Positions 1,779 to 52,115 of a DNA stretch of 53,652 nucleotides are shown here, piece by piece. The stretch's first letter is position 1. Each line of letters starts with the position of its first letter. The position numbers and the translations under genes are program-made. The stretch is from positions 1-53,652 of the forward strand of contig CAYVCD010000002.1 of NCBI GenBank assembly GCA_964450115.1. The letters run 5' to 3'. Source of the stretch: an uncultured Planctomycetia bacterium (GTDB taxonomy: Bacteria; Omnitrophota; Gorgyraeia; 2-01-FULL-45-10). The notes beneath the pieces were generated by a model. That model saw only the letters and a program-made list of their open reading frames with translations. It did no database searches and was not told where the DNA came from.

Positions 1779-4700
1779 ATGAAAAAGGTAAATCGCATAA
1801 TTTCCGCAATAGTCCTAGCGGCTTTTCTTTGCAACACATTCCTTGTCGACGCATCTTTTGCTCAGGACATCCTTGGTAACAGAAACTCATCTACTCTCGG
1901 CATATCCTTAAAATCCGATGACATGCTTGGTATTGAACGTCAGGATATGCACACCATATCTATGTGGTTCAGGGGGTGTTTGGTTTTAATCGCAAAGAAA
2001 GGATTATCAGTTAACCTCGAGAATTTAAAGAACCCAAAAGTATTGTCAGATGAAGTCCTCGATGGGATGAAAGACTTTAGATTCCTAAGGCATAGCGATA
2101 TTTCGCAGGATCCGATTACCGGTGTTATACAAATAAAGGTACGCAGGCGTGCCGGACTATCGATGAAGACATACTGGGTGGAGTATCTGCCGAGTGGAGA
2201 TCGACTCAGGGTTTATCCGGATGGCGCACAAGTTCCGCCGTTCGCTCCACACAGGCCACCGGCACCAAATGCGCGCGAATTTGACATTCTAGGCAAGGCC
2301 GGAGTAGTAGTCGGAAGGCAGACCAATCGCAGAGTTGCGGAAAATACTGCTGCGGGTCTGGACGAAAGTCAGACAGCGAAAGCGCAAGGCAGGCCCGATG
2401 AAAAGGAAGCCCACAGCAGAACCAGCCGCCTCGAAGGAAGACAGACGAATCCGGGTGCCACGGCAAGATTTATGACCGGCAAAGACCAGCCCGCGGCGGG
2501 GCGCGAAGCGGCAATGACATCTCAAGCTATTATGGATCAATTTCCCGATGTTCTTGGGACGCTGAAAGATCCGCTCGATAAGTTGTTTGACACGGGTGCC
2601 ATAGAACGCGATATTAAGGTATCTCCTTTGCTTAAGAAGGAGATTAACGAAAAAATCAAAAAGATCATCAGGAAGCATCGCACCACCGGCTTCATTGTAT
2701 TATTGGTGTATATGCTTCATAGAATAGAAGAAGCTGATGCCGTAATTAGAAGCAACCATTCCGGTGGCATAGTAGACCATGAGTCATCATTAGTAGATCG
2801 CTGCTGGTTTATTTTTAAACCTTATCAGATAGGTATAATTAATTATGCCATGTATATGACTCCGGCTCGTACAGTCGTTTCTGCGTTGATGGAGGTCCTG
2901 TATCATATAGAAAGAAAGAGCCCGAAACTTAAAGATGCAACACTTCAGGCGCGGGCTTCCATATTGCCGGGAACAGACTTGGGTAGAGCTTTGCTTGGAG
3001 AGCCTCGAGGCCGCACCAAGCCCGGCAAGAGCCCGGAGAACCTGATTAAATTAATAGCATTAAAATATGGCGCTGGCAAAACTCTATCAGCTCCTATGCT
3101 GTTGGAATGGTATGAGGAAAATTATGATAAGTTAGGGTTCGAAAATCCCGCGAAGCACGAATCGGCGCTTACGACTGTTGAGCGCGATCTGTATAAGTTG
3201 GACAATTCCCTGCTAGGACAAAGGCTAGTCGAGCCGTTGCTGGATTCAGAAAAAACATACGATCCTAATAATCCGCAAAGTCAATGGAAGAGGGGTAGCA
3301 AAGGAGAATTTTTATTTAGATTAACCATATCCGGTATCCAAGGAGTGGCTGAAGCAGCTATGCAGCTTTTTGCAAGCATAGCACCGGCGTCGGCAACTAA
3401 GCATGAACTTTCCGTCATGAGCAGTATAACAGAATTGGCGATCAGACCCGACGTTATAAGGATTTTAATGGATAAGTGGGGGCTGATTATCGTAGGAGGC
3501 CTGTCAAGCATTAGCCGTGAAGATTTGAGTTGGACGCCTGGTATTGAGGAGAGCGATGTAAAGAGTATAGAAGGAATTTTAGGCGCCATTGACCTTAATT
3601 TAAGAAAGGTTGATAAAGCGGTACCAGAGATCCGGATAGCGCAGGCCTTGCATGAAGCTCTCGATACCAGCATAAGAGAAGATATCGATTTTAACCATGC
3701 GTATGATCCTGGATGCATAGAGCGTTATATGATGCCTTTGGATATGCCAGCAGCTGCTCAATCCAGAATGTTACATGAAGTTAAAAAATGGCTGAACCAA
3801 AAGAAAAATTCACCAGCAGATGCTATAGGGGCTTTTGATTATAAGCTTGTTGATATTCCGCCGTACGAGCCCGGTGTGATTTTATGGAATGTATATAATA
3901 AAGTCATGGAAAAACCAGAAATCAGTAAACTTGTCGCGAAGGGCAGGACAAGAAACTCGGCTTTTAGAGTTATTGCAGCTATGATGGCAGAGCTTGAAGC
4001 AAGGTATGGGCTGGATAAAAGGCATGTTACAAATACCTACGCTACAGGCGAAAGCCTGACCGGCGGCAAGGAAGAGGTAGCACCCGCGCCTGCGGCAACA
4101 GTAAAAAGAACTAAGGCTATCAACGAGATATGGAAGGGGCTCTCTGGGCAAACAGATATAAGGAAGCCGATAAATTTATTCACCGAATCAATGATTGAAG
4201 ATGACTGGGTAAGGGTAGCGGTTGGATCTTTAGCCGAAGAGATGATCGCGGGAATTGAAGGGTTAAAAATTTACTCGAAGGCCGGGAAGGTCCCTGATGT
4301 TTGGGGGTCTACCGATATCTATACGATATATTTAAAACTCACCTTCAAAGCAAGACTTAATTCGATTAGGGATAGAAATTTATCCGCCCGGAAACTGAAA
4401 GCAGTAAAAGAATGGTTAATTCAGGAAAGCCGGAAGCTGGCAGCTCTGGACACTTCTTTGAATAACACGCTCCTTCCTTTATTGTCTCCTGTCGAAACGA
4501 TGCCGGAAACACCCGCGCCTGCGATAACGTCAGCGCCGACGAAAGCGGATCCTATGCTCAAAGAGATGCAAGCTGCGCTTGCGGAAGGAAAAGATCTAGA
4601 AGTCAGAGGAATGTTTACCAGCGCAGGAGATGCATATTTGACTGGATTGACCATATTCCCGGGAATCAGTGCAAGCAGGCAGGTCATAGGGGTAGCGATA

Positions 4701-7700
4701 GAGTTAAATGAAAGACATGCCAATCTATTAGTTAAATTAGGAGACGCCTCTAATTACCAGCATTACAGAAACCAGGCGCAGGATCTTCGCAAAATATTAG
4801 CTCAGCATAAAGACGGCGGGGAGGATGCGCACTTTTTCGCGGAACGAGTACCTCGTATGACTGCGACAGAGTTGGCGCATTATGTTATGAATAGCAGCAT
4901 AGGATATGTCCAGGCGTGTATTGCGATCAGGGTACTAAGTAATCCTGGACACGAAGCGCTGCTGAAAGGATTTTTGGAAAAATTGTATTCGGAGCTTGGC
5001 ATAAAAAATGCTATTGATACGCATTTGACAAGGATAAAAGTCGATGCGTATATTATAGAACTTAATAGCCAGAAAAAATCTGTTCCCGTGGCAAAGAGTA
5101 TCATCGCAAATCTATCTGCACCTGCGGCAACGCCAGAGCTTACTAATTCGCAAGTCGCATCGCTTACTAAAGATCCGCGGCTTCCATTGTTAGTGCTGAA
5201 GCTGTTTGATGCTTATCTGCCCGGCCATCCTAGATTCCATGTTGCTGCACATATCCGCTTCGACGTTACTACATATGAAGAAATTCGCAGTATAGTCGCA
5301 GAATGTTATCCGGCATTAGGGTCAAAATCATTGGTTAATATGCCATATTGTGAAGCTGAGGCAGAGCTGGAATCAGCCGCAAAACAAGGGCTATTAATTT
5401 CTCCGGATAGAAATATTAAAGCGGATAGCCCTCTCTACAATCTCTATAGTATAACACCAAAAGGTCAAGAAGAGGCAGATGCAATTTTCTCACTCTATAA
5501 GCATCTTTCCACTTCCGGAGTGGAAAGCGGTACAGCCAAACCAGTCGCGCCTGCGGCAACGCCAGCGCCGGCAGCGGAGCCTGATCAGGCAGCCGCGGGC
5601 GCTGTTATTACCGTAGGTGGGGAGACCTTAAAACTACGAGAAACGCCTGAGAGAGAGTTCTTTCCGCGAGGTGTGCGCAATGAGTTGAATCTCCTTCGAG
5701 AGACGATCTTCGGTGTCACGGAGGAAAAGGGCGCCTCTTTTGAGGATATAAAAGCGGCGCTTGCCACTCAATATTTCAAGTTTTTAGATACGGCTACGTT
5801 CACCGATATATCTTCGCTCACCGAAAACAGCCTGAATGCACATTATGAAGGAGGTTATGACGGCGGCACAGAGCTTGTGGGCCGCATAAAATATATGGTC
5901 GTCCTGCGCTATACGACCGGTATCGTTAGGCGCGTTCCCCATACGGCAATCGTCGTGCTTGCGTCAGGTAAGACAACCATCGATATGGCCGCAATAACCA
6001 ATTTTGTGTTGTATAAAGTCATAGACGAAGATTCGATGCCTGCCGCGCAAAGACTGATTATACCGCAGGTCCCTGCCGCCGAACCAGCCGCGGGCGCGGA
6101 GGAAATCTTATCCGCTCAGCGTATTTCCAGCATGACTGCCGATGGATTGGCTGTTTATGTGATGAAGGCGGAGAAGGGCTCGACGTACGTGACTGATATT
6201 TTAAGATTATTCACGCCGACATCATCAACACTTACAGGATTCATCACTTCGTTGTCAAAGAAGCTCGTTTTAGCGAAGCCTGCGGATATTGGATTGACCA
6301 TAAGATCTTTGGCGAGCGCGCTCAGGAAGCTTGCAGAAGTACCTGGATCTGTATCCGCGCAACTAGACCCGTCCATTAGCCCTGGAGAGTGGACAATCGA
6401 AACGAAGCAGATGTTGTTCAAGCGTTATACAAGTTTATTCGAAGGTCAGTCGGGCATTAAAGATGAGTTACGCAATATCATTGATCTGATCTCACGCCCG
6501 GGAGGCCTGAGGCCGTCAGTAAATAAGTTGAATATGGATATACACAATGGCGTTTACGGTGCCGCCTCCCATATATTGCCATCGATCTATTATATGGGAG
6601 CGGGAGATCAGGAATACTATCCTTTGCTTGTAAAAGATGACGCCGGCAACATTATCCCAGTGGTGATCAAGAATAGATTAGTAAGGGCCGGCGGAGAACA
6701 AATAAGGCGGGAGCTCAGTCCCTATATAATATCTAAAATGCCGGACGATGATATTCGCTTCATGATCAAGAATTTGTCGGCAGGCGAGCCCGCATTCGTC
6801 ACGGATTCATGGCTCGATTATCTCGACTTAAGGTACCTTGCGGCATATTGCGGCACGACAGAGGCCAGGCCTGCGGCAACGCCGGCGCCGGCACAAAATG
6901 ACACTCTTCAAGCGCATCTGCGAGATATTGCCGCGAGGATAGTGCCGGCTAACGGCGGTATCTTGGCTGCGGATGAGAGTACGGGCACGGCGGGTAAAAG
7001 GTTAGAATCGGTAGGCCTTCCTAATACTCCGGAGAATCGTCAGACGATGCGCCAGCTTATACTCATGGTGCCTGGGCTGAAAAATGCGGGCGTCAGCGCG
7101 GTTATTCTTTACAGCGAAACTTTTGATAATTTGGGTAAAAATGACGAAAACCTGGTGCAGGAGCATCTGGTGAAGAGAGGTATTCTACCCGGGATAAAAA
7201 CAGATGCGGGCCTTATCGATGATCCGGATAGCCCAGGCGAAAAACTTCCCGATCCAAAAGGCCTTCAAAAGTTACCTGAACTTTTGGCAAAGTATAAGGC
7301 AAAAGGCGCCGTCTTTACCAAGTGGCGCGTGACCCTATCCATCGATACTGTAAAAGGCCTGCCTACCGACGCTAATATCCGCAAGAATGCCGTAGTTTTG
7401 GCAAATTCCGCCAAACAGACGCAAGAAGCGGATTTAGTTCCTATTATTGAACCGGAGGTCTTACTGGACGGCTCTCACGATATTGCCGCCAGCTATAAAG
7501 CAACCACTCGTACTCTTGAGATAGTTTTTGAGGAACTGGCCAAGGCGGGCGTATGGCTGGATGGAGTCGTCTTGAAAACGAGTATGATCCTCTCTGGCAA
7601 TAAAGCCGCCAATCGCGCTGATAGCGAAATGGTGGGGTATCAAACGCTCAAGGGGCTTCTTAAAACGGTCCCCCAAGAAGTACCTGCGATAGTATTTTTA

Positions 7701-10475
7701 TCAGGCGGGCAAGAGGATGATGAGGCTAATAATAATCTGAATGCTGTTACTGTGACAAGCCAGACTAAATTCGAAACCGTCCGGGATGAGGCTGCGGCCG
7801 AATTGAAAGCCGAAGGAAAAACAGATGCCGCAGCAAAACTAAGCCAACTGAAGCAAGTCCCATGGCAGTTATCGTACTCTTTTGGCCGCGGGCTGCAAAG
7901 GTCTGGCTTGAGGGCATGGGCAGGCAAAAGCAAAAACTTCGAAAAGGCTCAAGAAGCTTTGCTAGAGGCAGCGCGCACAACACAAAAGGCGCGACTAGGC
8001 TTATTGCGGGCATGGCCGAGGCCAAGCGAAGTTTCGGAGGATAAGCGCGTAGTAGTGCTTATAAGCGGAGGCGAATCTGCGGGAGTCAACAATTATTTCG
8101 CGCAATTGGCGGTCGGACTTGCAGAACAAGGCTATTCGCTGGAAGTCGTGCGGTTCGGCCTCGACGGCCTGGTGCAACCCAGGGAAGAGTTCGCAAAAAA
8201 TCTAGTTTGGATTGACGAGAAGAGATCATACAGCATAATCAATATGCCGGGCGCAGTGGAGGGGACAGCGAGAGTCAGTTTAAGCGATGAGAAACATCCG
8301 GAATATATGCAAAACGCGGTCGCTAATCTTAAGGGTTATTGTAAAACGGTCATCATGGTGGGCGGCAGCGACCATATGGCCGAGGCGACAAAGATATCCA
8401 ATGAACTGCGCGCTCAGGGCATCAATGATATGGTGGTCATAGCGCTTCCGAAGAGCGTAGATTATGATGCGCCCAATGTCTATATGATAGGGGCCGATAC
8501 CGCGGGTTCTTACGCCAATAAATTTGTTATTCGCGCCGCACCTATGCCGTGGGAGAAGAAGGTGGTTGTGAGCGAAATTATGGGTAGGGATAGCGGTTAT
8601 CTGACAGTTAGCGCGGCAAACATGAATACGGCTGACAGGTCAGGATACACCGAGGCCGAATTGAGAAAGATGAAGGCAATAGCGCCTACTTTGATAGCCC
8701 TTATACCGGAATGGTCAGTGGATGAAAGAGGCGCATCCATCGTATCTCTTGCAGATGTCGTCAATGCGGTGAAACGGCGCATGAATAAATATGGCGCTGC
8801 CACTGTCGTTGTTTCCGAGGGATTCAGAATATCGCCGGATGACGAGTTACTCCGGAGAATACTGGAAAACCCGTTCTTTAAGGACAAATTTACGAATGTG
8901 AAAAAAGATAAACAAGGAAATCTGCTCTTTAACGAGATAGGTATAGGCAATTTCGTTACCGAGGCTCTTTCAATAGCGCTCGGCGAGGAGTTAAAGCTCG
9001 AACGGGAGAAGAACCTTTTGTACGAACTCCCGGGATACAGCTTCCGCTGTGTTCAGCCGGGTGAGATCGATATGGCAGTTGCGGACAGCGCAACGGCAAA
9101 AGCTGCGGATATGATAATCAATAGAAGAGATGAAGTTATTCAAAGGGGCGGCGTATGTATAGCAATAAAGCGCGGCATAAAATCCGCATCCGATATTAAA
9201 GCGGAGGTGCGCGACCTTCCGCAATCAAAAGGGACGGTAAGTCTTAAAGATTTTGTTATATTCACAAAAGACGAGCTGGCAGCTAAGAACGTGCTCGGCC
9301 TTGCCGACGAAAGCGCGCCACTTCCGGACATGGGGTCAGCCGCTTCACTGCCAGCGTTCCGTGAGAAAGACTTATCTCTGCTGGTAGAGGCGATTAATTC
9401 CCAGAGCGAATCAGCGCGTGATATGAGGAGATTGAATATATGCACCATAGCCGGTCAGGATGCCGACATGCTGATATCGCGGGTCGCATCGCACAAACCG
9501 TTGTCCTTAGCCGAGAGCTATGTGCATGAAAGAACGTCCGGCGCTGTCATGTATGTTACAGCGGGCCAATCCGGTGCTTTGTCATTGGGAAGATTGATCG
9601 ACGAGATAAACCAGCGCTATACGGCAAATCAGCATGGGATAAGATTCGCGAATGTGGTGATCTCTGCGAATGTCCTGTTTAAAGAAAACGATGAAACACT
9701 TGTAAGACTGCAAAAAGATAATCCGTCATTTGCAGCTCTTGTGGCGGCAGCCAAAAAAGATGCTGACGGTTTCCTGAATTTCGGCCGTCATATAGCGGAT
9801 GTTGTAACGATGGCGCTATCTATCGATAAAAAGATATCAGGCATAAGAAAGAATGTGCTCGGCGAATCGCTGAATTCTCTGCCGCAGGTCGCGCCTGCGC
9901 CAGCGCCTGAAGTGGCGATAGAAAGCAGCGTATCGGTACTACAGGGTATTATGAAGCTGGTCCAGGCGGAGTGGCTCGATGGTTGGCTGAATTTCGAAGG
10001 GCTTGCCAAGGCTGTGCAGCTGGCTGAGTGTCAGGGGAAGATCATAACAGATGACGATAATTCTACGATGATATTCTCCGAGATATCGACATTCGGAAAA
10101 CGCAATGAGGACGGCACCTATGAAGAGGGCTTAGGCATTATACTGCCAAGCCTCGTGAAGTCGGATATCAGGGTAGCCGTAGTGGCTACAACAAGCCGGC
10201 AGAAGGTGCTGATAGACGAGCTTAACGCAGGCCTGACCGAGGGCCAACAGATCATACATGCCGAAAGCGTTCCGGAGGTAATGGCAAAGATAAAGACGGC
10301 GCGCTACTATTACTTCAAGGTAGCGTCCGAAGCCGATGCCGGAACCGGCGTTACATCGATAACGATCATAGTAAAGAAGATACTCGACGCGATAGGGAAG
10401 GTAGCGGATATCATCAATCCTACAGTGATCGAACAGATGCACGAAGCTGCGCGTCAATTCGCGGCTGCGGCGTAA
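1779..10475 (+). CDS. giant multidomain protein 1 (2,898 aa): signal-peptide-like N-terminus, unknown modules, class I aldolase + PFK-like domains
   Basis: Uninterrupted 8,697-nt frame. AGGAG Shine-Dalgarno about 8 nt upstream of ATG 1779. N-terminus [30 protein letters not shown]. Seven Pro/Ala linkers split it into modules. Aldolase and PFK motifs are listed separately. Confidence 0.9.
   Translation: [2898 protein letters not shown]
5550..5573 (+). repeat. Pro/Ala linker nucleotide motif (copy encoding PAATPAPA)
   Basis: CCTGCGGCAACGCCAGCGCCGGCA is 23/24 identical to 6870-6893. Shorter versions (GCGCCTGCGGCAAC or close variants) occur at 4086-4099, 4515-4528, 5118-5134 and 9891-9911, plus a P/A stretch at 6071-6100. 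Confidence 0.8.
6870..6893 (+). repeat. Pro/Ala linker nucleotide motif (copy immediately upstream of the aldolase domain)
   Basis: CCTGCGGCAACGCCGGCGCCGGCA encodes PAATPAPA; 23/24 identical to 5550-5573. Confidence 0.8.
6900..7990 (+). other. class I fructose-bisphosphate aldolase domain inside giant ORF1
   Basis: [44 protein letters not shown] matches the class I FBA N-terminal signature. Also PIIEPEVL, Schiff-base-type Lys in VVLKTSMIL (AAA at 7575-7577), LSGGQE and SYSFGRGLQ. Confidence 0.85.
8043..9180 (+). other. phosphofructokinase-family (PFK-like, divergent) domain inside giant ORF1
   Basis: [15 protein letters not shown] (cf. SGGDAPGMN), [13 protein letters not shown] (cf. GGDGS), ALPKSVDYD (cf. 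PGTIDND), [10 protein letters not shown] (cf. MGR), PGYSFRC (cf. GHIQRGG). Several substrate-binding positions are substituted, so activity is uncertain. Confidence 0.7.
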
Positions 10476-10497
10476 AGAGAACGAGCTTACTTTAACC

Positions 10498-10525
10498 AGT
10501 AGGGCACCTTTAAAGGTGCCCTACT
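10498..10525 (+). terminator. perfect 28-nt palindrome after giant ORF1 (hairpin without a clear U-tract)
   Basis: AGTAGGGCACCTTT|AAAGGTGCCCTACT, 23 nt after the ORF1 stop. No T-run follows, so it could be a weak or factor-dependent terminator or an RNA-stability hairpin. Confidence 0.4.
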
Positions 10526-10551
10526 CGGTATATATCCCTCGAATAATTCGC

Positions 10552-19918: not shown

Positions 19919-19961
19919 ACCAGATAGCCTAGAACATGAAGCTTGGCAATCTGGTTTTTTT
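19919..19961 (+). terminator. intrinsic-terminator-like hairpin inside the ORF2 leader (possible attenuator)
   Basis: ACCAGAT-a-GCC (19919-19929) pairs with GGC-a-ATCTGGT (19945-19955), 15-nt loop, then a T7 run (19955-19961). An A-run sits upstream. It ends 30 nt before ATG 19991. Confidence 0.55.
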
Positions 19962-19990
19962 ATTTAACAATTGTTAAGAGAACAAATTAT

Positions 19991-22900
19991 ATGAAACTTA
20001 GGTTCAATAAAACATATAGGATCATAGCCGCAATGCTTCTTGTGGCTTTCCTCGCCCAAGACATCTCTTGGGCTTATCCAAGTCAAGCTTCTAATAGCAA
20101 TCTTGCTGTGCCGGGCTTGCAAAATGCGAGTGTATTAAGCAGACTGAAGAAGGTTCTTGCAAACAAACTTTTCAAGAAGAAGGGCAAGAGCTTCAATAAT
20201 TCCGCAATAGATACTACTATCAAAAAGGATCCAATTCCGCAAAACCATCTTTCTGCAAATATAGTCCTTCCGCCAGACATATCGGCTGCGCTAAAAGATA
20301 TCGATGAAAAGAATGCAAAGCATATAATCGATATGATCCGCCGTATATATAGTCATGAAAAAATAGGCATCATGCGCCAGAACCACTGGCTGGAATATAT
20401 CACAGGGCTTTTAAGAGACCCAAGAACGCAATACAAGATCGTTGCGTCAAAGGCAGCGGCTTTAATATTTGAAGATTCTTATCATCTGGATAAGATGGAT
20501 GAGGGGTCTTTGAGAAAGGCCGAAGAGGCATTGCTCGCAGCGCTTAACGATACCAATTTGCAGGTTCGTCTGGCCGTGATATCTGCTATGCATAAACTAG
20601 TTGAGTCCAGGTATGATGTAAGGGTCTATACGTTGAAGCAGATGGCCGGGCGCTTTGATGAGCTGATCAGAAAATATCATAAGGTAGATGCTACTCTTGA
20701 AGATGCTGCGCTGCGTGCGATGATGGCTTTATCAAGCGAAAGAGATATTGAGTTGAGCAGTGCATACGCGGTCAGGGCGTTCGATGAGAGCCTTAAAGCG
20801 CAGGCGAAGACGCTTGGAAAGAATATCCGGACCTTCCTGAAGGAAGAGAGGCGTTCCGACTTCAGGATGAGGGGCTTAAGCCGCGTTCTGGATAGGTGCG
20901 TCGCGGATTCAGGGATGGGGCTTACTGCTTATATAAGAAGCGTCTATTTCATGAAATTCATAGAGAGTCTTTTCAGCGACGAAAAAACTGATATCGCAAA
21001 AATAAAAGAATATGTGCTAAAGCTGCCGCGCGGCTCCAGTAATATTGATGGGCGGATAATTGTCTATGATCCTATCTTAAAATTGGCGGATAAAGAATTA
21101 TCGGAGATGTATTTTACTTCCGGGCAGGATGTCAGGTCATTATTGTCGTGGCGGAAGGATTCAGAGCCCGTCCAAGCCTTCGATTTCTACGGAGAAGTAT
21201 TTATGACGCAAAGCCGAGTGAGATTTCTTGAGATGGCAGATAAAGGACTCGTCTATTACGATGCAAACCAGAAGCGGTTTGTCACAAACCCCGCCACATT
21301 CATAGATGTGGCCTCGGGAGAAACCTCCATGCCGGATTCCGACCGGATAACGGATGGCGATGCCCTATCTATGTATATAGCTGAGTTAGAGGCTATGGAA
21401 TGCTATATAATGTCAGACGCAAAAAGCCATGAAAAAAACTTCTTGAGGCCACTTTTCGAGCTTCTATTCAATAGGCTCGAGAAGGACTTTGAAGGTTCGG
21501 AAGATTTTATAACATATTGCAGAGAATTGATAAGAAGATGGCCCGAGGGTTCATATGAGATAAGAAAGGCCATGAACGATGAAGAGGCTATTCTGCTGGA
21601 AAAGTTCGGGAAGATAAAAAACTCTTACGCGACAAGGAATGCTTCCATACAGCTTTACGGAATTCTGCTCTTCTATCTGACCCTGAAGCCGCAGCCCTAC
21701 CTGGGGCATCTCTATGATGAGTATATGAAGAACAGTCCGCCGCATAATCTGTCTCTATATAGAACGGGCATATCCTATCATACCAGAGGGGATAATGTGA
21801 TCTATTTCTTCCCGAAGAATCTTTTATTTAATGGAACGAATGCCGATGCGCTTGGAAAGCAAAGGAGGGGCGAGGCGCCTTTTGAGGACGCCAGGAAATC
21901 CGAAAACGCCGCAAAGATACTGGAGGCGGTGAAGATATGGCGCCGCGAATGTCCTAACCTCGAAAACAGGATAAAGCGCTTTGAGAATAATAGCACCGTT
22001 TCCGAGCTTATAATGAAGACATCGCTCATATTTTCGGATCCTGTGCACAACGTCATCAGAGTAGTCCATGCCGGACGGGGGAGGCGTCTCTTGTTTCTAC
22101 CGAAAAATTATCTCGACAGCCTGAGAGTTGACAGCGAATACGATATGAAGGAGCTTGCCGTATGGCTTAATTTTGCCCAGCGTTATCTGGATATACATGA
22201 TCACATGTCCGGCAGGAAGGTGGCGGCGCATCAGGTTCAAAAGGTCCTTTCCGAGCTGGTCAGAAGGTCTTTTGAAAAAGAGGATACGCATCTTGTCGAG
22301 CCGGAGATACTTAAATACAGAATGTCGCAGTTGATGAAGCAGGACGAGCTTATAAAATATAAGGATGTCTTAATTTCGCTTGCCCTTGAAGAGGCCGAAG
22401 TGCAGGTAATGGAAAAAATATCGCGTCCGACCAAGGACGAGCTCATGATTCTTGAAAACGCATATGGCCGCATCGCGCATGGCTATGAAGTGCTTGGCAT
22501 GAAATCGAGATCTGAAAGAGCATACAATGGTATGGCGGACATAATAACCAAGATCCAGTCCACGGACCCATGGGCGCTGCCTTATGAATTGCAGGTAGAT
22601 CTCATACTTACTGCATTGAGGTTCGGGCGATGGGAAGATTTTATCAATGAGCTAAAGATACTTCTAACCGGCAAGGGGTATCCGAGGGACATAAGATGGA
22701 CCGAACTCTCTTACATTATGAAAGAGATAATTACACCGGCGTCGATGGGCCCCAGAAGCCTGGAGAGCACTATCATGCGCGCATTGGCGGCTCAGATAGC
22801 GGCGGCTGATCCCAGATCGGCCGAAGTTATTAAAGAAACGGCTGACCAGGCCAACGGGATGTTAAGTAAATATTTCAAAAATCCATTCGGCAACCTGGGT

Positions 22901-25900
22901 ATGGACGACATAACCGGGTGTCCGAGCCCAGAGGCTCTAGAAAGGCTAAAGAAAGGCGAAGACAATCCGAACAGTTTGATTGATGTAGAAAATAGACTGG
23001 TAAGAAAAGTTGCGGGCTTTGAGAGCTGCACCGATATAGGAAGGATGGATCCCTACTCCATCAGCATGACCACGAGGACCGCCAATACCCTGGAAGGAAT
23101 GGGGTATATACTTAATGAGTTCAGAAAGCCCGTAGGCGATGCAGGCATCTCTGATGCCGAAGTTGCGCTAATAAATAAAAGCGCGGTTGTAGTGAACATG
23201 ATGGATAAGAATGGGCATGAACAAAGCTGTCTTTTAAAGATCCTAAGTAGAGAAGATCCTGTTGAGAAAGCGGTGGAAAATTTCTTAAGAAACGACCTGA
23301 GCGTATACGAGGGTTTAGCGAAAAATAACGGTTGCAAAAATATAATATTGGTTCTTGGTAAAAAACATCCATCCTATCCGACAAATATAATAGTGCCTTC
23401 AGAGCGGGGAGAAGACATTCTTATAGTAAGCTATGGATCCGGTGAACAGCCCGAGCATATAAACGCAGCTTCGGCTGGAGATGCTGTCAAGAAGTCAGGG
23501 ATATCGGATCCTGATGCGCTAGAGGCTTTCTTAAAGATACAGAAAGAGGCTAGTCTGCAAAGCGTATATAAAGCCGCGGAATACTTTATAGGGATAGGCA
23601 CACCGGGAGCCGAAAGGTTATTGAAGATGGCCGTAACTAAGAAGGGCCATTTCCAAGAAGAATTTTTAGGCGAATTTATTGAAGCCAGGGCAGTAGAAGA
23701 CAATATAAGATATTCGAGAGTGATAGAGTTGGGCATGGAAAGGTTCGGAGCGGAAGTGGATTTTGTATTGGAGGTCGATAGGTCAAAATACCAGTCTAAT
23801 ACAAAAGGCGGCTTTGAGCTGGAAGATGGAGTTTATCTTGGCGAGTCTAAAACGTCAGATAAGTCCAACTCTCTTGAAAGGGTAATTGAGGGCGCGGTCT
23901 CGGATAAAGTGGAAAGATACCTGCGCGTCGCGCTGAATAAGCGGAAATCCGAATCCGGAAATCCGAACGCTCCTTTAATAAAGGGCATAATATTTGCCAT
24001 TGGCGGCGAAACAGTTCGGTCGGAGGGCGTTGTAGATTTTACTATTACCCGCCTAGAAGAAGGCGATAACCTGCGTTCCGATGGCATCGGAACATTCCTG
24101 GCGCTCATTCCCGATACGATAGTAGCCAGAGGGAGGGACAGATTAACATTCAAAGAGAGGTCTTTTATTTCCGATCTGCTTTCAGATTTAAAAGCGCGCG
24201 GAATGTTGGATAGCGCGCGCATCTCCTCTCTTGTCCCGATCTTGAAAGCCGCGCTGATGGAATACGGCCTTAGCCGCACACAGTTTATGATATCCGATGC
24301 TATAAAAGAAGCCGGTGCAGATCCGTATATAGGACAAACGCAGAATAAGGAGATATGGAACAGCGTATTTCGCGCTCTTGGCGCCAGGACAGGCATATCG
24401 CTTAATATGGATTTCCAGAGCCAGAAATTTCTCATTGACCGCGAAGCTTCGGTAAACGGCAGGACCGATCTTGAAATAAGCTACTGGCAATCCGGTTTGA
24501 GCGAATTCAAGAATACGAGGGGCAGAGCAAGATGTGAGTTCGAGATAGCCGGCCTGCCGGGCAGGTGGGTTCCGTTAATAGATGAGCATGATCAAGTAGT
24601 CATAGCGCATATATCCGACAGCGGTAGCCAAAAAGCCCTCAATGATTATTTTGTTTTCCGCCCTGATGTGACTTCAAAAGATTTATTGATAGACAAAGAG
24701 TTGGAGAGATTAGCCCTCGGGTCAGAGAGGCTGTTGTATTATGCGCGCAGCGGAGCAGATCCTGTGCCTGTGCGCATTCCGGTAACGGTGTCTTATGACG
24801 AAAAGCTTACTTCGAATGTTTTGATAGGGTATATAAAGGCTGCTATAGGCGGAAGCAGACTTTTATATTATTTTGGGCAGCAGATCATGAAGAGCCCGGC
24901 GCGTTGGGAGGCTTGGGGACTCGAGCCGGAATTAGGTAGTGCCGGCGCCATAAAGGCTGTGGCCAGGCCGTTTGGTATCTTAGGCGACAAAGACGAAGGC
25001 TCGTTGGTATTTGACAGGCATGAAAAAATGGCCAGGGTTTCGGATATCGTCGTTCTTGACAATAAGGGCAAATTCGGGATCGTGGCGGAGTTTGGTTTTC
25101 ATGATATGTTCCAATTGTACCATAAATATGCAAATAGCTTCATCTTCATGGCGCAGCATGGCAGTAAGATATCCGGTCAAAGCTCGCGTTTGCCGCAGAG
25201 CGTATTGTTGTACGCTGATGACATAGCTATAGGCGGTAAGAAAGCGGCCCGTGAGAGTCAGGGTATCTCCGCAAGGAAATTAATTCTTGAAAGACTCGAG
25301 CAAATACTTGATCGCGCATCAAGCTCTTACCAAAAAGAGCCAAATATGCTCATGCCTAGAACGGTCTATTTTATGCTGGGCGGCGCTCTTACCGCAGATA
25401 GGCCCGCTTATTTTAAACTTCCAGTAATAGCACAATTCCGATGGCACAAAAAAGAAGGCAAGTATATCCCGGTGAAGAGCGGCCTGAAGATACTGGAGGG
25501 TGAGGATAATCTGGAAGGCTTGTTCCAGGCAGCCTACTCTTATATCAAGCGTGCGGAAGGCTTAATTCCAGGGCCTCTTGCCAAGCCCGAAGCTACAGTT
25601 GCTCCTTCATTAGAAATACCGGGATCAGCGGATATATTATCAGCGGCATTGGTGCTGGGGTTGCGCATTGCGGATTCTGTACCAGGCACCGCCAATGCTA
25701 TCGATGACGTCGTTAATAGCAAGGCATTGGTGCTATTTGCAGATGATATTTTGGAGCGTGGTACAGCTGCCGACCTTGCCTATACATTAAGAGAGTCTTC
25801 GACTCTGAATAATTCCACGATCGTCCTGTACGGAAAGAGGCCGGGCAGAGCGGAATTGCTGGAGAAGATCATAAGCTCATCAGCTCAAGATAAGGGCATA

Positions 25901-26335
25901 AAGGTCGTGAAGATAGCTCCGGAGGACCTGCAATCTTTAAATGGCGGGAAAGATATAAATGTCGAATTCGCCGATGAGACAAAAGAGCTGGAGCTTCTCT
26001 TGAGGCACGTAAACTCTCGCTACCAAATAAATAACGGCATGCTCATGGGAGTCATTAAAGGCAGGACCGATGCTTTGTATGAATCCGGTATAAAGAACCT
26101 GGCCAAAGAAAAACATGTTCCTATAGTCTCCTTCGAGCATATAGAGTCCAACGATGTGGATAAGGAGATATACTCATTCAGAGAAGCCTTGTCGTTATTG
26201 ATCTCTATAACGAACGATACAACTCCCCTTAAAGACAGAGAGTGGTTTAAGCTGTTAAGGCCGATAGAAAAAGAAGATATCGATAGGATATATCAGGATT
26301 ACAGGCGTGCTCTAGAGGTGGCTATAAATGCGTAA
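19991..26335 (+). CDS. giant protein 2 (2,114 aa from ATG 19991), signal-peptide-like N-terminus, otherwise uncharacterised
   Basis: Uninterrupted frame. ATG 19991 gives MKLRFNKTYRIIAAMLLVAFLAQDISWA|YP. The track's TTG at 19943 lies inside the leader hairpin and is less likely. Only a HEAT-like repeat was recognised by eye (LLAALNDTNLQVRLAVISAMHKL, about 20521-20610). The stop overlaps the ORF3 start. Confidence 0.85.
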   Translation: MKLRFNKTYRIIAAMLLVAFLAQDISWAYPSQASNSNLAVPGLQNASVLSRLKKVLANKLFKKKGKSFNNSAIDTTIKKDPIPQNHLSANIVLPPDISAALKDIDEKNAKHIIDMIRRIYSHEKIGIMRQNHWLEYITGLLRDPRTQYKIVASKAAALIFEDSYHLDKMDEGSLRKAEEALLAALNDTNLQVRLAVISAMHKLVESRYDVRVYTLKQMAGRFDELIRKYHKVDATLEDAALRAMMALSSERDIELSSAYAVRAFDESLKAQAKTLGKNIRTFLKEERRSDFRMRGLSRVLDRCVADSGMGLTAYIRSVYFMKFIESLFSDEKTDIAKIKEYVLKLPRGSSNIDGRIIVYDPILKLADKELSEMYFTSGQDVRSLLSWRKDSEPVQAFDFYGEVFMTQSRVRFLEMADKGLVYYDANQKRFVTNPATFIDVASGETSMPDSDRITDGDALSMYIAELEAMECYIMSDAKSHEKNFLRPLFELLFNRLEKDFEGSEDFITYCRELIRRWPEGSYEIRKAMNDEEAILLEKFGKIKNSYATRNASIQLYGILLFYLTLKPQPYLGHLYDEYMKNSPPHNLSLYRTGISYHTRGDNVIYFFPKNLLFNGTNADALGKQRRGEAPFEDARKSENAAKILEAVKIWRRECPNLENRIKRFENNSTVSELIMKTSLIFSDPVHNVIRVVHAGRGRRLLFLPKNYLDSLRVDSEYDMKELAVWLNFAQRYLDIHDHMSGRKVAAHQVQKVLSELVRRSFEKEDTHLVEPEILKYRMSQLMKQDELIKYKDVLISLALEEAEVQVMEKISRPTKDELMILENAYGRIAHGYEVLGMKSRSERAYNGMADIITKIQSTDPWALPYELQVDLILTALRFGRWEDFINELKILLTGKGYPRDIRWTELSYIMKEIITPASMGPRSLESTIMRALAAQIAAADPRSAEVIKETADQANGMLSKYFKNPFGNLGMDDITGCPSPEALERLKKGEDNPNSLIDVENRLVRKVAGFESCTDIGRMDPYSISMTTRTANTLEGMGYILNEFRKPVGDAGISDAEVALINKSAVVVNMMDKNGHEQSCLLKILSREDPVEKAVENFLRNDLSVYEGLAKNNGCKNIILVLGKKHPSYPTNIIVPSERGEDILIVSYGSGEQPEHINAASAGDAVKKSGISDPDALEAFLKIQKEASLQSVYKAAEYFIGIGTPGAERLLKMAVTKKGHFQEEFLGEFIEARAVEDNIRYSRVIELGMERFGAEVDFVLEVDRSKYQSNTKGGFELEDGVYLGESKTSDKSNSLERVIEGAVSDKVERYLRVALNKRKSESGNPNAPLIKGIIFAIGGETVRSEGVVDFTITRLEEGDNLRSDGIGTFLALIPDTIVARGRDRLTFKERSFISDLLSDLKARGMLDSARISSLVPILKAALMEYGLSRTQFMISDAIKEAGADPYIGQTQNKEIWNSVFRALGARTGISLNMDFQSQKFLIDREASVNGRTDLEISYWQSGLSEFKNTRGRARCEFEIAGLPGRWVPLIDEHDQVVIAHISDSGSQKALNDYFVFRPDVTSKDLLIDKELERLALGSERLLYYARSGADPVPVRIPVTVSYDEKLTSNVLIGYIKAAIGGSRLLYYFGQQIMKSPARWEAWGLEPELGSAGAIKAVARPFGILGDKDEGSLVFDRHEKMARVSDIVVLDNKGKFGIVAEFGFHDMFQLYHKYANSFIFMAQHGSKISGQSSRLPQSVLLYADDIAIGGKKAARESQGISARKLILERLEQILDRASSSYQKEPNMLMPRTVYFMLGGALTADRPAYFKLPVIAQFRWHKKEGKYIPVKSGLKILEGEDNLEGLFQAAYSYIKRAEGLIPGPLAKPEATVAPSLEIPGSADILSAALVLGLRIADSVPGTANAIDDVVNSKALVLFADDILERGTAADLAYTLRESSTLNNSTIVLYGKRPGRAELLEKIISSSAQDKGIKVVKIAPEDLQSLNGGKDINVEFADETKELELLLRHVNSRYQINNGMLMGVIKGRTDALYESGIKNLAKEKHVPIVSFEHIESNDVDKEIYSFREALSLLISITNDTTPLKDREWFKLLRPIEKEDIDRIYQDYRRALEVAINA

Positions 26336-29300
26336 TAAATATTTAAGTTTAAAGCCCGGGCTAAATGGGTTGAGGGAAGCTTCCCCCCGAGTAGCGACTC
26401 TTATCCCAACCCGGGCTTTTCTAATGAAGATAATGGCAACGATCTTGATCGCGGCGTTCATCGCGCAGGATATCGCGTGGGCGAATCCCGAGATAGGCCA
26501 GGGTGTGCCTTCAAAGAGCTCGCTGCAGATACCGCTGATGTTGGGTCCGATGCGCGCCGGTGATGTCGGCATGCTTATGGAAGCGAAGGTCCAGCAGATA
26601 ATACGCTCGATACCGTTAGAGGAGCTTAAAGAGCGCAAATATAAATTGCCGATCGAAGAGAGGGGCATAAGATTTCAAATAACCTTCAGCGTAGATTCGA
26701 GCGAAAGGCTTGTGGCGAACTGCACGGCACCTGGAAAAAATCCGGTCAAACGAAAGTTTGTCATTAAAGACGACCTCACGTTCGCCACTGAGAACGAAGA
26801 GACGCCGAAAGAAGCATCATCGCTTCCGAAGTTCAGCGAAGCGCTTGCGAAGATGGATGCGCACATGAGGGAGAGCGCTTTTGAAAGGGCTAGGAGCGAT
26901 AACTATGAATATCATTTTGATGAAAATTCGCCTCAATTCCTGCTTCATGCCATCTTCATATATTTCGGAGACACTCCAGTCAATGACTTAAGCGCTATAG
27001 ATATATACCTGACCGTTATGGCCGGACAGAGTGACCAAAAGGTGAACCTTGCTCAGTCTTTTAATTTATTAAGGGGCATTATCCGCACCATACATAAGGA
27101 TGGCGAACTCTTACCTCCGCGTGAAACATTCAATAAAATGAGCCCTGAATCAATCAATGCCGTAATTGAAAAGATGCTCGCATTAAGAGAGAGCCATCTT
27201 AAGATCATCGATGAGTCGGAATCCAAATTTAAGGAGCTCATCCCTGACGTAGAATTTGCGTACGATTATCTGGACTATTTCAGAGGTCGTGTTGTCGAAT
27301 TTTATGATGAGCTCGCGGCAAGATACGCGGCGCTACTTGCGGCGAAGCACGCCAAAAAGGGGAAATCGGGCAAAAGCGAATATCTAGGCATGCTCGGAGC
27401 GGGGTTATTGCAAAAGCTATATGATAAGGTCGCCGATCACTTAATAACGCGATATGTAATTTATCTTCTCAGATGGCAGTTAAGCTCACCCTTGATAGCT
27501 CCTCTCGTAATATATTTTGGCGGGGGTTTTGCAGCTGTTGTATTGACCAATATAATAGGCGGTATTGTATTCTTCTGGCTCGATAAACTTATATTGAAGG
27601 AGCCGGGCAAATTATTCTCCGGCTGGAAAGATTTTGCCGGGGAATATCTTTTATATCTGGCAAGGTGGCAGCTGACTACTCCACTGATATGGATATTTAC
27701 ATATTATATGGGCACGGGCCTGTCATCAGCCATATATGCCAATATAATAGGTGGACTGATATTCTTCTGGGTCGATAGACGGATCTTGCGTCCTTCAGAG
27801 AGTTCGAAAAAGAGAGAAGACAGTCTACGAAGATCCGGCTCAGGATCTGTTCACGAACGCCATCTCTCCGATGTGCCGACCCCCGGAGCAGAGCCGATAT
27901 CCGATAGCCCCGCGGAATTGCTCAGGTACAAGCTCGACCAGGAAGCGCTGTGGAAGAGCGTGAATGATCCGCTTGCCGAAAGGAAGCGCGGCCCGCCTGA
28001 TAGGCGCGTCAATCTTGGCGGACCTGCAAAAAAATCTTCACATCCTACGATCACGCCGGTAATGCGCAAACGCGGTCAATTGATACGTAAGGTCAAGACA
28101 AGGCTGCATCTTTTAGGCCTAAGGCCTCTTGCTGTAAATGTTGTAGACGAGATCGCACGGATGGCGTCTAAGGACCCTTCCATAGAGAAGCTTAGTTTTT
28201 ATATGGTAATTAATGCCGCAAAAGCCAACCATATCAAATTGCAGTCCAGAACAATAGATAAGGACAAAAGGATTGCCGAGATAATAAGGCTGGCCAGAGT
28301 ATTTTACAGAGATAACGGGAGAAAGCCCACAGCCAGAGAGACTGTCGCCCTTATTAACAAAGAGGATCCTTACGCTGGCTGTACTTATTACAATTTTATG
28401 AAGTGGGTGGAAAAGAATGCTATAGCATACGATAAACTCGGGGTGTTTAAGCAGCATGCCGGATTGGGTGGTTTCGTGGACGAGGCCATTAAAAAGGCAA
28501 AAGAGATAGCCGGACAGACCGGTAGTAAAAAAATAAGACTGGCCGATCTGAGAGAAAAGCTTAAATTAAAACCGCCGGCGTTTGCAAACCGCGTAAGAAG
28601 TTTGAAAGAAAGTAGCGGTGTGGATTTATACGACGAGCTCAGTAAGGCCGGGTTCGAAATCATGCGAGGAGCATCCGCCAGCACGCCTCCGGCAAAGGAT
28701 GCAGGCAGGCCATCCACGCGTTCCGCTAAGCGTCCCGACAAAAATAAACCCCTGTATATTCCGATAGCGGTAGTCAAGACCCTGATCAGGCGTGCGCTTA
28801 GAAACGACGTCGTTCCCGATCAGTACCGCGCTACGATGTCAGCCGGCCCGAAAGGGCTTGACCGTCAGCGGGTAGAAAATTCTATAAAAGAATACGAAGC
28901 TCTTATGGATTTTAAGAGCGCAGATCACAGCCGGATAGATGCGGCAATAGATACCTTAAATGCGCTTAGCAGGATGGATTCTAAATATTATACATTGAGT
29001 TTATTGAGAAGAGCGGCCAGCGTTCTGGATTATGAAGATAAATATAGATTAAAGGCTATGAAGAACGCCGCGAGGCGACTATTCGGATCCATCCCTGATA
29101 ACCTCGTATTTATTTCCTCATCACCAGCAATTAACAGCAAGAAAAACGGCTCAGAGCCGGAAAGTGAAAAAATAATATCGGATCAGGTCGGGAGACTGAT
29201 CAATACCGCGGGCCAGTTCCCCAGGCTGACTGCGATCGGTGAGGTGAAATTGAGCGTCCTGTACGGGTTGGGTGACAAAAGTGCGGGAGATACGCTGGCG

Positions 29301-51566: not shown

Positions 51567-52115
51567 GCGCGCCTCGTGAAGTTTTGTGTATGTGGGGCCT
51601 TTTGGAGAGAGCTTGCTTTCGAATAGAACGACAGAAACGACGGAATGGGATTTAGTGATCGGCAACTGACAGTTGCCGATCTTTTCTTTTAGGACTTCTT
51701 TATTCTTCGGTGAGCGGACTCTGCCTATGGTTAAGTGTGGCGCGAATGGCCGAGGCTCCTTCTGAAATCCGATCTTCAATAGCTCTTCAACAATATTTTC
51801 CGCAAATGCTTTAGATTCAGCTGTACCCTTATCCAGTCCGACCCAGATCACTCTGGGATAATTGATATTAGGGAAGGCCCCGATATCTTTTATAGAGATC
51901 TCAAATGGTTTGGTCGAGCCGGATATTGCATCTAGTATTGATCTTATTTTGGCGCATTTTTCTTCAGTTATATCGCCCAGGAACTTCAATGTAAGATGGA
52001 TATTGCCCGTCTCGATCCACTTAACATCGGCTTCGGAATATTTTAAATGAGATTGTATCTGGGAGAGAGAGTCATTGATCTCGGGGGAGAGCTCTATTGC
52101 TATGAATGCGCGCAT
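51558..52115 (-). CDS. thpR: RNA 2',3'-cyclic phosphodiesterase (2H family, LigT/ThpR)
   Basis: MRAFIAIEL start and two H-x-T-x motifs (HLTLKFLG, HLTIGRV). The 3' end overlaps the ORF3 3' end by 9 nt (convergent). Confidence 0.85.
   Translation of the reverse strand: MRAFIAIELSPEINDSLSQIQSHLKYSEADVKWIETGNIHLTLKFLGDITEEKCAKIRSILDAISGSTKPFEISIKDIGAFPNINYPRVIWVGLDKGTAESKAFAENIVEELLKIGFQKEPRPFAPHLTIGRVRSPKNKEVLKEKIGNCQLPITKSHSVVSVVLFESKLSPKGPTYTKLHEARLS

Follow-up and report, generated by a model that had tools for sequence, protein, structure and literature searches.

Why a protein that appears to be marked for export should also carry two enzymes of central sugar metabolism is the question raised by GIANT1, a product of 2,898 amino acids (aa) encoded at 1779..10475 on the plus strand of a 53,652-nucleotide stretch of contig CAYVCD010000002.1 (the whole stretch is referred to below as the window). 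A sequence-only reading of this DNA had described a class I fructose-bisphosphate aldolase (FBA) joined to a phosphofructokinase (PFK)-like domain inside a giant protein with a signal peptide, and had suggested that the PFK-like part binds rather than phosphorylates its substrate. We favor, with a probability of roughly 0.5, a different view of the second domain: GIANT1 is an accessory, probably Sec-exported protein, and its FBA together with a block resembling pyrophosphate (PPi)-dependent PFK forms a working module for fructose-1,6-bisphosphate (FBP).

GIANT1 was identified from an open reading frame (ORF) list and its translation, and its frame is uninterrupted over 8.7 kb. Upstream lie a promoter-like TTGACA-17-TAAACT and an AGGAGA ribosome-binding site, and a terminator-like hairpin (10493-10530) directly follows the stop codon; GIANT1 thus has the appearance of its own transcription unit. 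Every named best match of the PNPase encoded in the window is an Omnitrophota metagenome-assembled genome (MAG), with a top identity of 98%, and we assign the host to this phylum. The best match of GIANT1 itself is annotated 'fructose-bisphosphate aldolase class I, partial [Candidatus Omnitrophica bacterium]' (93% identity) and comes from the Lac Pavin MAG GCA_026387135.1.

A scan with profile hidden Markov models, the check proposed with the sequence-only reading, matched exactly two Pfam families in GIANT1, Glycolytic and PFK. The FBA domain occupies aa 1709-2075 (6903..8003, plus strand) and is recognized by both Pfam and NCBIfam. Glycolytic (PF00274) matched aa 1714-1996 and a second stretch (E=2.1e-88; 296.9 bits against a cut-off of 22.2), and the NCBIfam equivalog FrucBisAld_I (NF033379) scored 322.9 bits against a cut-off of 250. 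The motifs ILAADES (6960-6980), IIEPEV (7443-7460), VVLKTS (7566-7583), FLSGGQ (7695-7712), and SFGRGL (7878-7895) are all present, and the equivalent of the Schiff-base residue Lys229 is K1933, inside VVLKTS. Residues were numbered by alignment to rabbit aldolase A, in which the numbered residues were confirmed to fall on the right letters. On this alignment GIANT1 retains D33, E34, S35, K107, D109, K146, R148, E187, E189, K229, S271, and R303. The same residues are kept in 14 members of its clade (53-93% identity), except that P0020 has Thr in the S35 column and the C-terminally truncated P0016 ends ahead of R303. The FBA had been called apparently intact, with loss of the Schiff-base Lys or of other catalytic residues as the result that would count against it; with model scores above the cut-offs and all of these residues in place, we consider the domain likely to be catalytically competent.

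The GIANT1 domain is ~40% identical to solved eukaryote-type class I FBAs, such as rabbit muscle aldolase A and P. falciparum 1a5c, and shares their full catalytic set. Unlike these enzymes, it is embedded in a predicted secreted multidomain protein, it has no Tyr363 tail, and its C-terminal helix continues into another enzyme domain. It also carries a helical insertion of 33 aa (SQTKFETVRDEAAAELKAEGKTDAAAKLSQLKQ; 7758..7856, plus strand) between the equivalents of rabbit residues 283 and 296. This insertion is specific to the clade, being present in GIANT1 and the 14 other members and not in canonical FBAs. All members of the insertion clade are multidomain proteins or fragments, and each one with an intact N-terminus has a signal peptide.

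The second Pfam match, PFK (PF00365), covers aa 2090-2446 (E=3.5e-23; 82.8 bits against a gathering score of 30.9), which bears out the presence of a PFK-family domain after the FBA. The PFK-like core, with PPi-type signatures, extends over aa 2078-2480 (8010..9218, plus strand) as judged from Pfam PFK, AlphaFold2 (AF2), and Foldseek. It contains SGGESAGVN (8064-8090), GGSDH (8361-8375), PKSVDYD (8448-8468), MGRDSG (8580-8597), and GYSFRC (9033-9050), motifs that lie where they had been reported. The core is followed by an extension at aa 2481-2702 (9219..9884, plus strand) that is conserved together with it. An exhaustive HMMER search with the PFK-like part returned 266 matches. The best 24 of these 266 (E<1e-30) all belong to fragments or to proteins 700-5,448 aa long, and ordinary PFKs of 300-450 aa appeared in the same search only at E ~1e-9 to 1e-5. 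Most of the close relatives recovered have a signal peptide. The conserved unit is a cassette of ~630 aa, comprising the PFK core and the extension of ~230 aa, and is common to at least 17 representative proteins. Genome loci with the cassette belong to Omnitrophota in six of seven cases; the seventh, L007 (CAZYZC010000089.1), is labelled 'uncultured Planctomycetia bacterium' and could be a mis-binned contig or a rare cassette outside the phylum.

A profile of the cassette family matched PFKs in the PDB at E=1e-17. The AF2 model of the cassette (pLDDT 89.9, pTM 0.91), in which the extension packs with the core, gave a Foldseek match of E=7e-17 to the PPi-PFK 9mea and target TM-scores of up to 0.85 (6pfk); the top structural matches were T. 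vaginalis PPi-PFK, T. brucei PFK, and bacterial PPi- and ATP-PFKs. In this model the cassette has the two-Rossmann PFK fold, as do the PPi-PFKs of N. multiformis (3hno), M. aquaeolei (3k2q), T. vaginalis (9dqm), and B. burgdorferi (1kzh). Structural matches cover only ~45% of the model, so the extension matches no solved PFK. It does, however, contain a duplicated copy of the core segment around Glu222 (9579-9821, plus strand): with hhalign, aa 2601-2681 of the extension align to aa ~2322-2398 of the core (probability 97.2%, E=3e-11), and the copy reads SAN, a degenerated form of SEG. Eukaryotic tandem PFK-1 of mammals and yeast likewise derives from an internal duplication in which the second copy lost catalytic residues (PMC12203962). 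In the cassette, by contrast, only ~80 aa of the second Rossmann domain are recognizably duplicated and the superposition is poor (root-mean-square deviation ~20 Å); this duplication is independent of the eukaryotic PFK-1 event.

Position by position, the cassette combines retained and altered PFK residues. Arg72 (in GTAR), Arg171 (in MGR), and Glu222 (in SEG) are kept, and GGD, which contains Asp12, reads GGE, a conservative change. The canonical PGTIDND reads PKSVDYD, where Lys124 is of the PPi type, Thr/Ser125, Asp127, and Asp129 are kept, and Asn128 is changed. GGDGS/GGDDS is replaced by GGSDH (GG[S/N/G][D/N/Q]H in the family), so that Asp103 is lost and Asp104 is mostly kept. GHIQRGG reads GYSFR, with His249 changed to Tyr and Arg252 kept, and Arg243 is absent. 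In an alignment of 14 family members, R72, D127 (the catalytic base, D2228 in GIANT1), D129, R171, E222, and R252, all of which the cassette shares with PPi-PFKs, are invariant, and T125 is Thr or Ser.

PPi-dependent PFKs are distinguished by Asp at the fourth position of GGxD (GGDD) and by Lys in PKTIDxD (PMC12203962). Both donor signatures are found in the cassette, in GGSDH and PKSVDYD. The third-position Asp is also missing from PRK14072-type PPi-PFKs, which read GGGDS in 3k2q and 3hno and GGNDS in database relatives; finding the acid at position 104 therefore need not mean that the enzyme is inactive. Furthermore, among the PFK-family relatives of canonical length that we aligned, which lack the cassette, several have Tyr or some other residue in the His249 column. 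The substitutions GGSDH, SVDYD, and GYSFRC had been taken to mean that the domain may bind rather than phosphorylate. Since GGSDH and PKSVDYD contain the PPi-type Asp and Lys, since His249 is variable, and since the six residues listed above are invariant, the degeneracy of the PFK-like part was overstated. The loss of Asp103 remains ambiguous with regard to PFK activity.

The cassette nevertheless stands well apart from known PPi-PFKs. It is only 17-19% identical to them, has S105 replaced by His and N128 by Tyr or Arg, lacks R243, falls below every curated cut-off, and carries the extension with its duplicated half-domain. It was recovered only inside long multidomain proteins, mostly with signal peptides. 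We read it as a deeply diverged subfamily of PPi-PFK type that is under constraints of its own, rather than as a decaying copy, with PPi as the probable phosphoryl donor. It adds to the PFK superfamily a branch that had not been described and that has a partial internal duplication of its own. A candidate second, convergent pairing of PFK with aldolase, a class II FBA beside the cassette in P0084, was rejected, as it had no Pfam support and its best E-value in a sequence search of the PDB was 0.6.

The FBA and the PFK-like cassette are truly fused in one large protein, as had been claimed. The same junction is present on contig JAPLMH010000066 of the Lac Pavin MAG (93% identity), and a second contig of that MAG, JAPLMH010000078, encodes the C-terminal 415 aa of a GIANT1-like protein (93% identity) directly upstream of rpsO-pnp. 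With the junction shared by a separate MAG, an assembly artifact can be dismissed. It had also been considered that a common stand-alone didomain gene might have been mis-joined to the giant; no stand-alone FBA-PFK didomain was found in a word-indexed search of 5.8 billion proteins or among the best-scoring matches listed from an exhaustive search of 1.84 billion representatives. The stretch of ~17 aa reported between the two domains does exist (LLRAWPRPSEVSEDKR), but it is not a free linker: its WPxPxxxxPEKR pattern leads into the cassette in stand-alone relatives as well (P0007 and P0011, for example) and is conserved there, so the C-terminal helix of the FBA runs straight into the cassette. 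The FBA-PFK junction has no Pro/Ala linker, whereas seven other module borders of GIANT1 have one.

The partners of related FBAs are also informative. The same FBA clade is fused to a GlpX-type FBPase in P0002, P0003, and P0012 and to malate synthase/isocitrate lyase in P0004 and P0008, and in locus L002 it adjoins a giant with PPDK, PGK, and TIM domains. PFK-like proteins, for their part, adjoin gap-pgk-tpi and an ABC transporter, as well as a conserved cluster of sugar oxidoreductases, an isomerase-like gene, an ABC permease, and GH130. The placement of an FBA beside an enzyme that makes or uses FBP thus recurs, and FBA with the PFK-like cassette is the version of this lineage. In the choice raised earlier between a channelled module and displayed or decoy domains, the missing linker and the recurrent pairing with FBP enzymes favor functional coupling of the two GIANT1 domains. 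Fusions and bifunctional enzymes of adjacent steps include the FBP aldolase/phosphatase and the TPI-PGK of Thermotoga, which are cytoplasmic housekeeping enzymes. GIANT1 resembles them in placing consecutive reactions around FBP or triose phosphates on one polypeptide. To our knowledge, none of the known glycolytic fusions joins FBA to PFK behind a signal peptide.

The export signal that had been noted is found at the N-terminus of GIANT1, where aa 1-29 (1779..1865, plus strand) form a predicted Sec-type signal peptide under a rule-based call. The N-terminus, MKKVNRIISAIVLAAFLCNTFLVDASFA followed by QD, has the n-, h-, and c-regions of such a peptide: the n-region MKKVNR has a charge of +3, the h-region IISAIVLAAFLC is 12 aa long, and a small-x-small site precedes the predicted cleavage between ASFA and QD. 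These agree with what is expected of signal peptidase I substrates, namely a positive n-region, an h-region of 7-15 residues, and small residues at -3 and -1. The leader holds the only hydrophobic segment of GIANT1. The same pattern recurs in 52 long family proteins, in which the mean net charge is +2.5 ahead of the h-region and -0.3 behind it, the h-region has ~12 residues, and a small-x-small site is present in 48. The leader is therefore predicted to act like a cleaved Sec signal, with the N-terminus inside and the body outside, and GIANT1 is probably exported across the inner membrane.

Some of these leaders are alike in sequence. GIANT2 and GIANT3, two further giants of the window, both have ...AAF(L/I)AQDI(S/A)WA in the leader (1779-1950, 19991-20130, and 26328-26500 were compared), and M.K.N+IIS.I.L..FL is common to the leaders of GIANT1, P0085, and P0126. 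A box (D/N)(T/N)LA(T/P/V)(P/S) lies ~8-15 aa past the predicted cleavage in many members. The homologues P0007, P0011, P0089, P0100, P0116, and P0137 were included in this comparison along with P0085 and P0126. The likeness, which goes beyond that of generic signal peptides, may reflect a lineage-specific sorting or processing signal.

In L011, L014/L015, and L012, whose PNPases are 94%, 93%, and 82% identical to that of the window, ribF is directly followed by rpsO. Among the compared loci, a giant separates the two genes only in the window and in the Lac Pavin MAG, which marks GIANT1 as an insertion between ribF and rpsO that is specific to this lineage. For this single genome pair we calculated dN/dS. 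The ratio was 0.26 for the FBA, 0.23 for the PFK-like core, 0.30 for its extension, 0.13 for the C-terminal module, and 0.41-0.90 for the spacer modules, compared to 0.027 for pnp and 0 for rpsO and dut. The enzyme domains are thus more constrained than the spacers, and the PFK-like domain is constrained as much as the FBA. Selection on GIANT1 is purifying but relaxed, and its fast evolution fits accessory, possibly surface-exposed cargo better than core glycolysis.

Proteins of this general kind have been reported from Omnitrophota. Giants of the phylum carry TPI, GPI, FBPase, PGM/PMM, FBA, and PPDK-like domains that were predicted to be extracellular, and have been classed as 'multi-enzyme metabolic clusters' (West-Roberts et al. 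2023, 10.1101/2023.11.21.568195; 10.64898/2026.06.07.730766). Signal peptides or transmembrane helices were found in 94% of long Omnitrophota proteins, and their metabolic content was predicted to be extracytoplasmic (10.64898/2026.06.07.730766). West-Roberts et al. had predicted the same location but doubted it, and noted that an overlooked transmembrane segment might have mislocalized the domains (10.1101/2023.11.21.568195). The occurrence of glycolytic domains, FBA included, in Omnitrophota giants is thus already known from these preprints, and the PFK-like cassette is described in neither. The word 'phosphofructokinase' occurs in neither preprint; the sole mention of PFK is a genome-wide pfkA call in a KEGG panel of the 2026 preprint, where pfkA was assigned to 176 of 176 complete Omnitrophota genomes, only at a relaxed threshold (10.64898/2026.06.07.730766). 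The FBA insertion clade and the direct fusion of FBA to PFK are likewise missing from both texts, as are the border motifs (Pro/Ala or RSExR), the C-termini in ...AA, and any example as small and assayable as GIANT1.

GIANT1 resembles the 'Archaeovorin' and other multi-enzyme giants in its phylum, its N-terminal signal or anchor, its cytosolic-type sugar domains on one chain, and its variable locus. It differs from them in having 2,898 aa, one hydrophobic segment, and two Pfam domains. The two surveys were limited to proteins of at least 10,000 aa (2026) or at least 30,000 aa (2023), lengths that neither GIANT1 nor its largest neighbor (8,412 aa) reaches; such a limit is a size criterion and not a biological boundary.

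The modules of GIANT1 are separated by Pro/Ala linkers, all on the plus strand. These are EVAPAPAATV (4074..4103, a member of DNA repeat family D3), ETPAPAITSAPT (4506..4541, D1-D3), SAPAATPE (5115..5138, D1), PVAPAATPAPAAEPDQAAAGA (5541..5603), PQVPAAEPAAGAEE (6063..6104), RPAATPAPAQ (6867..6896), and QVAPAPAPEVA (9885..9917, D2). The enzyme block had been said to start at a PAATPAPA linker, which we located at aa 1698-1705 (6870-6893) within RPAATPAPAQ. This observation can be extended, since RPAATPAPAQ forms the upstream border of the block and QVAPAPAPEVA its downstream border. The linkers are alike in DNA as well, forming repeat families D1-D3 with 63-83% identity and the core GCGCCTGCGGCAACGCCAGCGCC; copies lie at 4076-4099, 4505-4545, 5110-5141, 5537-5577, 6857-6897, and 9891-9915. 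Such likeness would suit a role as recombination joints for module shuffling. At the protein level, BLASTP for internal repeats in the giants found none beyond a short match between the N-terminal leaders of GIANT2 and GIANT3.

Related proteins have border motifs of another type. RSE[V/L/A/M]R or RAE[V/A]R brackets the enzyme domains of P0002, P0003, P0004, P0005, and P0012, which form one sub-lineage. The 16 occurrences in these five proteins amount to 2.6 per 1,000 aa, compared to 0.12 in the rest of the set, and several lie close to the ends of the FBA domain, at a distance of a few residues. These motifs, which may be processing sites, are not present in the giants of the window, which have Pro/Ala linkers.

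Downstream of the enzyme block, GIANT1 ends in an alpha/beta module (9918..10472, plus strand) delimited with the help of an AF2 model (pLDDT 82.7, pTM 0.80) and Rossmann-like in structure. It weakly resembles the cap-less phosphatase MDP-1 of the HAD superfamily (E=7e-4, TM-score ~0.4), and the position of the HAD DxD nucleophile reads FSE. At that position the C-terminal modules of P0086 and P0089 read GID(T/S)DIG, which resembles an intact HAD motif I. We rejected the module as a known sorting domain, given the weak MDP-1 likeness, the loss of the HAD nucleophile motif, and the fact that NCBIfam matched none of the N- and C-termini of the three giants. Homologues of the module were found only in P0116, P0137, P0230, and P0231. 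A single C-terminal domain common to the family was likewise rejected: jackhmmer recovered two relatives in the set, and a big database added two more fragments. With so few relatives, the C-terminal modules of the family are taken to be heterogeneous despite their common ...AA/...SA ends. GIANT1 itself ends in …QFAAAA (10458-10472), GIANT2 in ...INA, and GIANT3 in ...HSA. In a survey of C-termini (P0002-P0012 and P0083-P0139), 35 of the 86 long proteins of the family had an [A/S/T]A end, mostly Ala-Ala (truncation affects many of the rest), compared to only 3 of 72 ordinary short PFK-family matches. It may be speculated that a C-terminal Ala-Ala is bound by a PDZ-type tail-specific protease or acts as a degron.

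The long genes of the window all lie on the plus strand, in the order truB, ribF, GIANT1, rpsO, pnp, dut, uppP, ftsK, rodZ-like, miaB/rimO-like, pgsA, pgpA, GIANT2, and GIANT3. A tRNA scan and an Rfam scan of the window gave no matches. GIANT2 (19943-26335, plus strand; 2,130 aa) begins with a signal-like leader and matched no Pfam family. GIANT3 (26328-51566, plus strand; 8,412 aa) also has a signal-like leader and, beyond it, two hydrophobic segments at aa 400-482. Its domains include Sigma70 regions 2 and 4, many Cro/C1-type and winged helix-turn-helix (HTH) domains, LOG (Lysine_decarbox), HAD/S6PP-type phosphatases, PALP (a PLP-dependent enzyme), GT9, a methyltransferase, and an APH-type kinase. 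GIANT2 and GIANT3 together (19943-51566, 31.6 kb) lie between pgpA and two minus-strand ORFs of 185 and 161 aa (51558-52585), which resemble the ligT-cinA pair of L011 by size, order, and strand alone. In L011, pgpA adjoins ligT/cinA. Other giants occur at this spot in relatives, with HATPase/methyltransferase, HEAT/GT5/GT1, and Metallophos/PPDK_N/His_Phos_1 domains; the loci compared included L011, L012, and L014. The spot between pgpA and ligT/cinA looks like a hot spot for variable giant genes.

How might GIANT1 work? In the reading we prefer, it would be a Sec-exported accessory member of the multi-enzyme large-protein class of Omnitrophota, in which aa 1709-2702 act as one module centered on FBP. 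The FBA would interconvert FBP with dihydroxyacetone phosphate and glyceraldehyde 3-phosphate. The PFK-like cassette, fused to it without a linker, would most likely interconvert fructose 6-phosphate (F6P) and FBP, or would at least bind both. Its duplicated half-domain may replace the partner subunit that ordinary PFKs need, allowing the cassette to work alone on a long chain. The Pro/Ala linkers, which are encoded by a repeated DNA motif, would part the modules as flexible tethers, recombination joints, or processing sites. Catalysis by the block is probable, and its sugar phosphates would be met in the periplasm, at the cell surface, or at an interface with prey.

A number of observations weigh against this proposal. 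FBP, F6P, triose phosphates, and PPi are cytoplasmic metabolites with no known source beyond the membrane, and a sister giant with sigma-70, HTH, LOG, PALP, and methyltransferase domains is hard to place in the periplasm. The signal peptide was called by simple heuristic rules. No NCBIfam PFK model reached its cut-off on GIANT1, and all scored far below (PRK14072, 61.7 bits against 273; TIGR02477, 18.7 against 588; PFKA_PPi_Ttgales, 57.1 against 550). The Mg-binding Asp103 of canonical PFKs is Ser in GIANT1 and Asn or Gly in its relatives, and Asn128, Arg243, and His249 are altered as well. The FBA is without the C-terminal Tyr363 tail; Tyr363 is the proton shuttle of animal aldolases and is not universal in the family. 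Lastly, dN/dS in the enzyme domains is ~10 times that of neighboring pnp.

Several of these points would be accommodated if the leader only anchored GIANT1, leaving the enzymes in the cytoplasm as a membrane-tethered metabolon that serves the cell's own upper glycolysis or gluconeogenesis. The substrates and the PPi or ATP donors are cytoplasmic, sister giants have DNA-binding and sigma domains, and West-Roberts et al. allow for mislocalization by an overlooked transmembrane segment. In addition, divergent PFKs may be the rule in the phylum, given that a relaxed threshold was needed to find pfkA in 176/176 complete genomes. However, the h-region of ~12 aa, the positive n-region, the acidic or neutral flank, and the small-x-small site are those of a cleaved signal, the gene is missing from the locus in relatives with 82-94% identical PNPase, and the tenfold higher dN/dS than in housekeeping neighbors points to accessory cargo rather than core glycolysis; we consider a tethered metabolon unlikely. 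The altered residues could instead mean that glycolytic folds are merely displayed on an exported carrier as binding, adhesive, or decoy surfaces, with the PFK-like part a pseudo-enzyme. Such display would agree with the loss of Asp103, the changes at Asn128, His249, and Arg243, the degeneration of one copy of the Glu222 segment to SAN, the missing Tyr363 tail, and the raised dN/dS, which is usual in surface proteins. Surface FBAs that act as adhesins are established in pathogens. Across 14 diverged relatives, though, the catalytic residues of the FBA are kept, apart from the Ser35-to-Thr change in P0020 and one truncated member, and the six PFK residues are invariant. The PFK residues that do differ are mostly in known PPi-type states, and the repeated pairing of the FBA clade with the FBP enzyme GlpX is hard to explain for a mere adhesin. 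Display without catalysis is, in our judgment, distinctly unlikely.

A secretion signal and enzymes that need cytoplasmic substrates would be reconciled if GIANT1 were an effector polyprotein, entering the prey cytoplasm whole or as linker-cut fragments and rewiring the sugar-phosphate metabolism of the prey. Omnitrophota such as V. archaeovorus are epibiotic predators, giant genes adjoin loci resembling type II secretion systems and type IV pili, and the sigma, HTH, and other cytoplasmic domains of the neighboring giants fit delivery into a cell. GIANT1 is accessory, inserted, and fast-evolving, and the border motifs (Pro/Ala here, RSExR-type in relatives) could be processing sites. Against this, neither GIANT1 nor the rest of the window contains a delivery apparatus, protease, or translocation domain, and metabolic-enzyme effectors of this kind have no known experimental precedent in bacterial predators, so that the idea, being purely inferential, seems to us highly improbable. 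The unusual architecture alone might also raise suspicion of a chimeric assembly or of read-through between separate fba and pfk genes. With a frame open over 8.7 kb, the junction and the rpsO-side C-terminus both present at 93% identity on two contigs of an independent MAG, and the cassette found in many other long proteins, the chance of such an artifact is vanishingly small.

We return to the proposed exported FBP module and to what it would mean. A further step, possible but doubtful, is that an active FBA and a PPi-type PFK (FBA and GlpX FBPase in sister proteins) are exported through Sec as part of a glycolysis or gluconeogenesis beyond the predator's cytoplasm. If true, these reactions would run in an enlarged periplasm, in the cell coat, where the cell touches its prey, or, after delivery, in the prey cytoplasm, and Omnitrophota would possess a sugar-phosphate pathway that is extracytoplasmic or trans-cellular and is assembled from shuffled enzyme modules joined by repeated linker cassettes. 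Omnitrophota are widespread and ultra-small, many are probably predatory or host-dependent, and a large share of their coding capacity goes to huge proteins. GIANT1 is a small and tractable specimen of these, with one signal peptide, linker-delimited modules, and a two-enzyme block of ~1,000 aa that, unlike giants of 40,000-147,000 aa, can be cloned, assayed, and localized. It makes testable whether the domains are real enzymes, which phosphoryl donor the PFK-like subfamily uses, and on which side of the membrane they act. GIANT1 does not open a new category; rather, it offers a compact handle on the role and membrane side of the enzyme domains of giant proteins.

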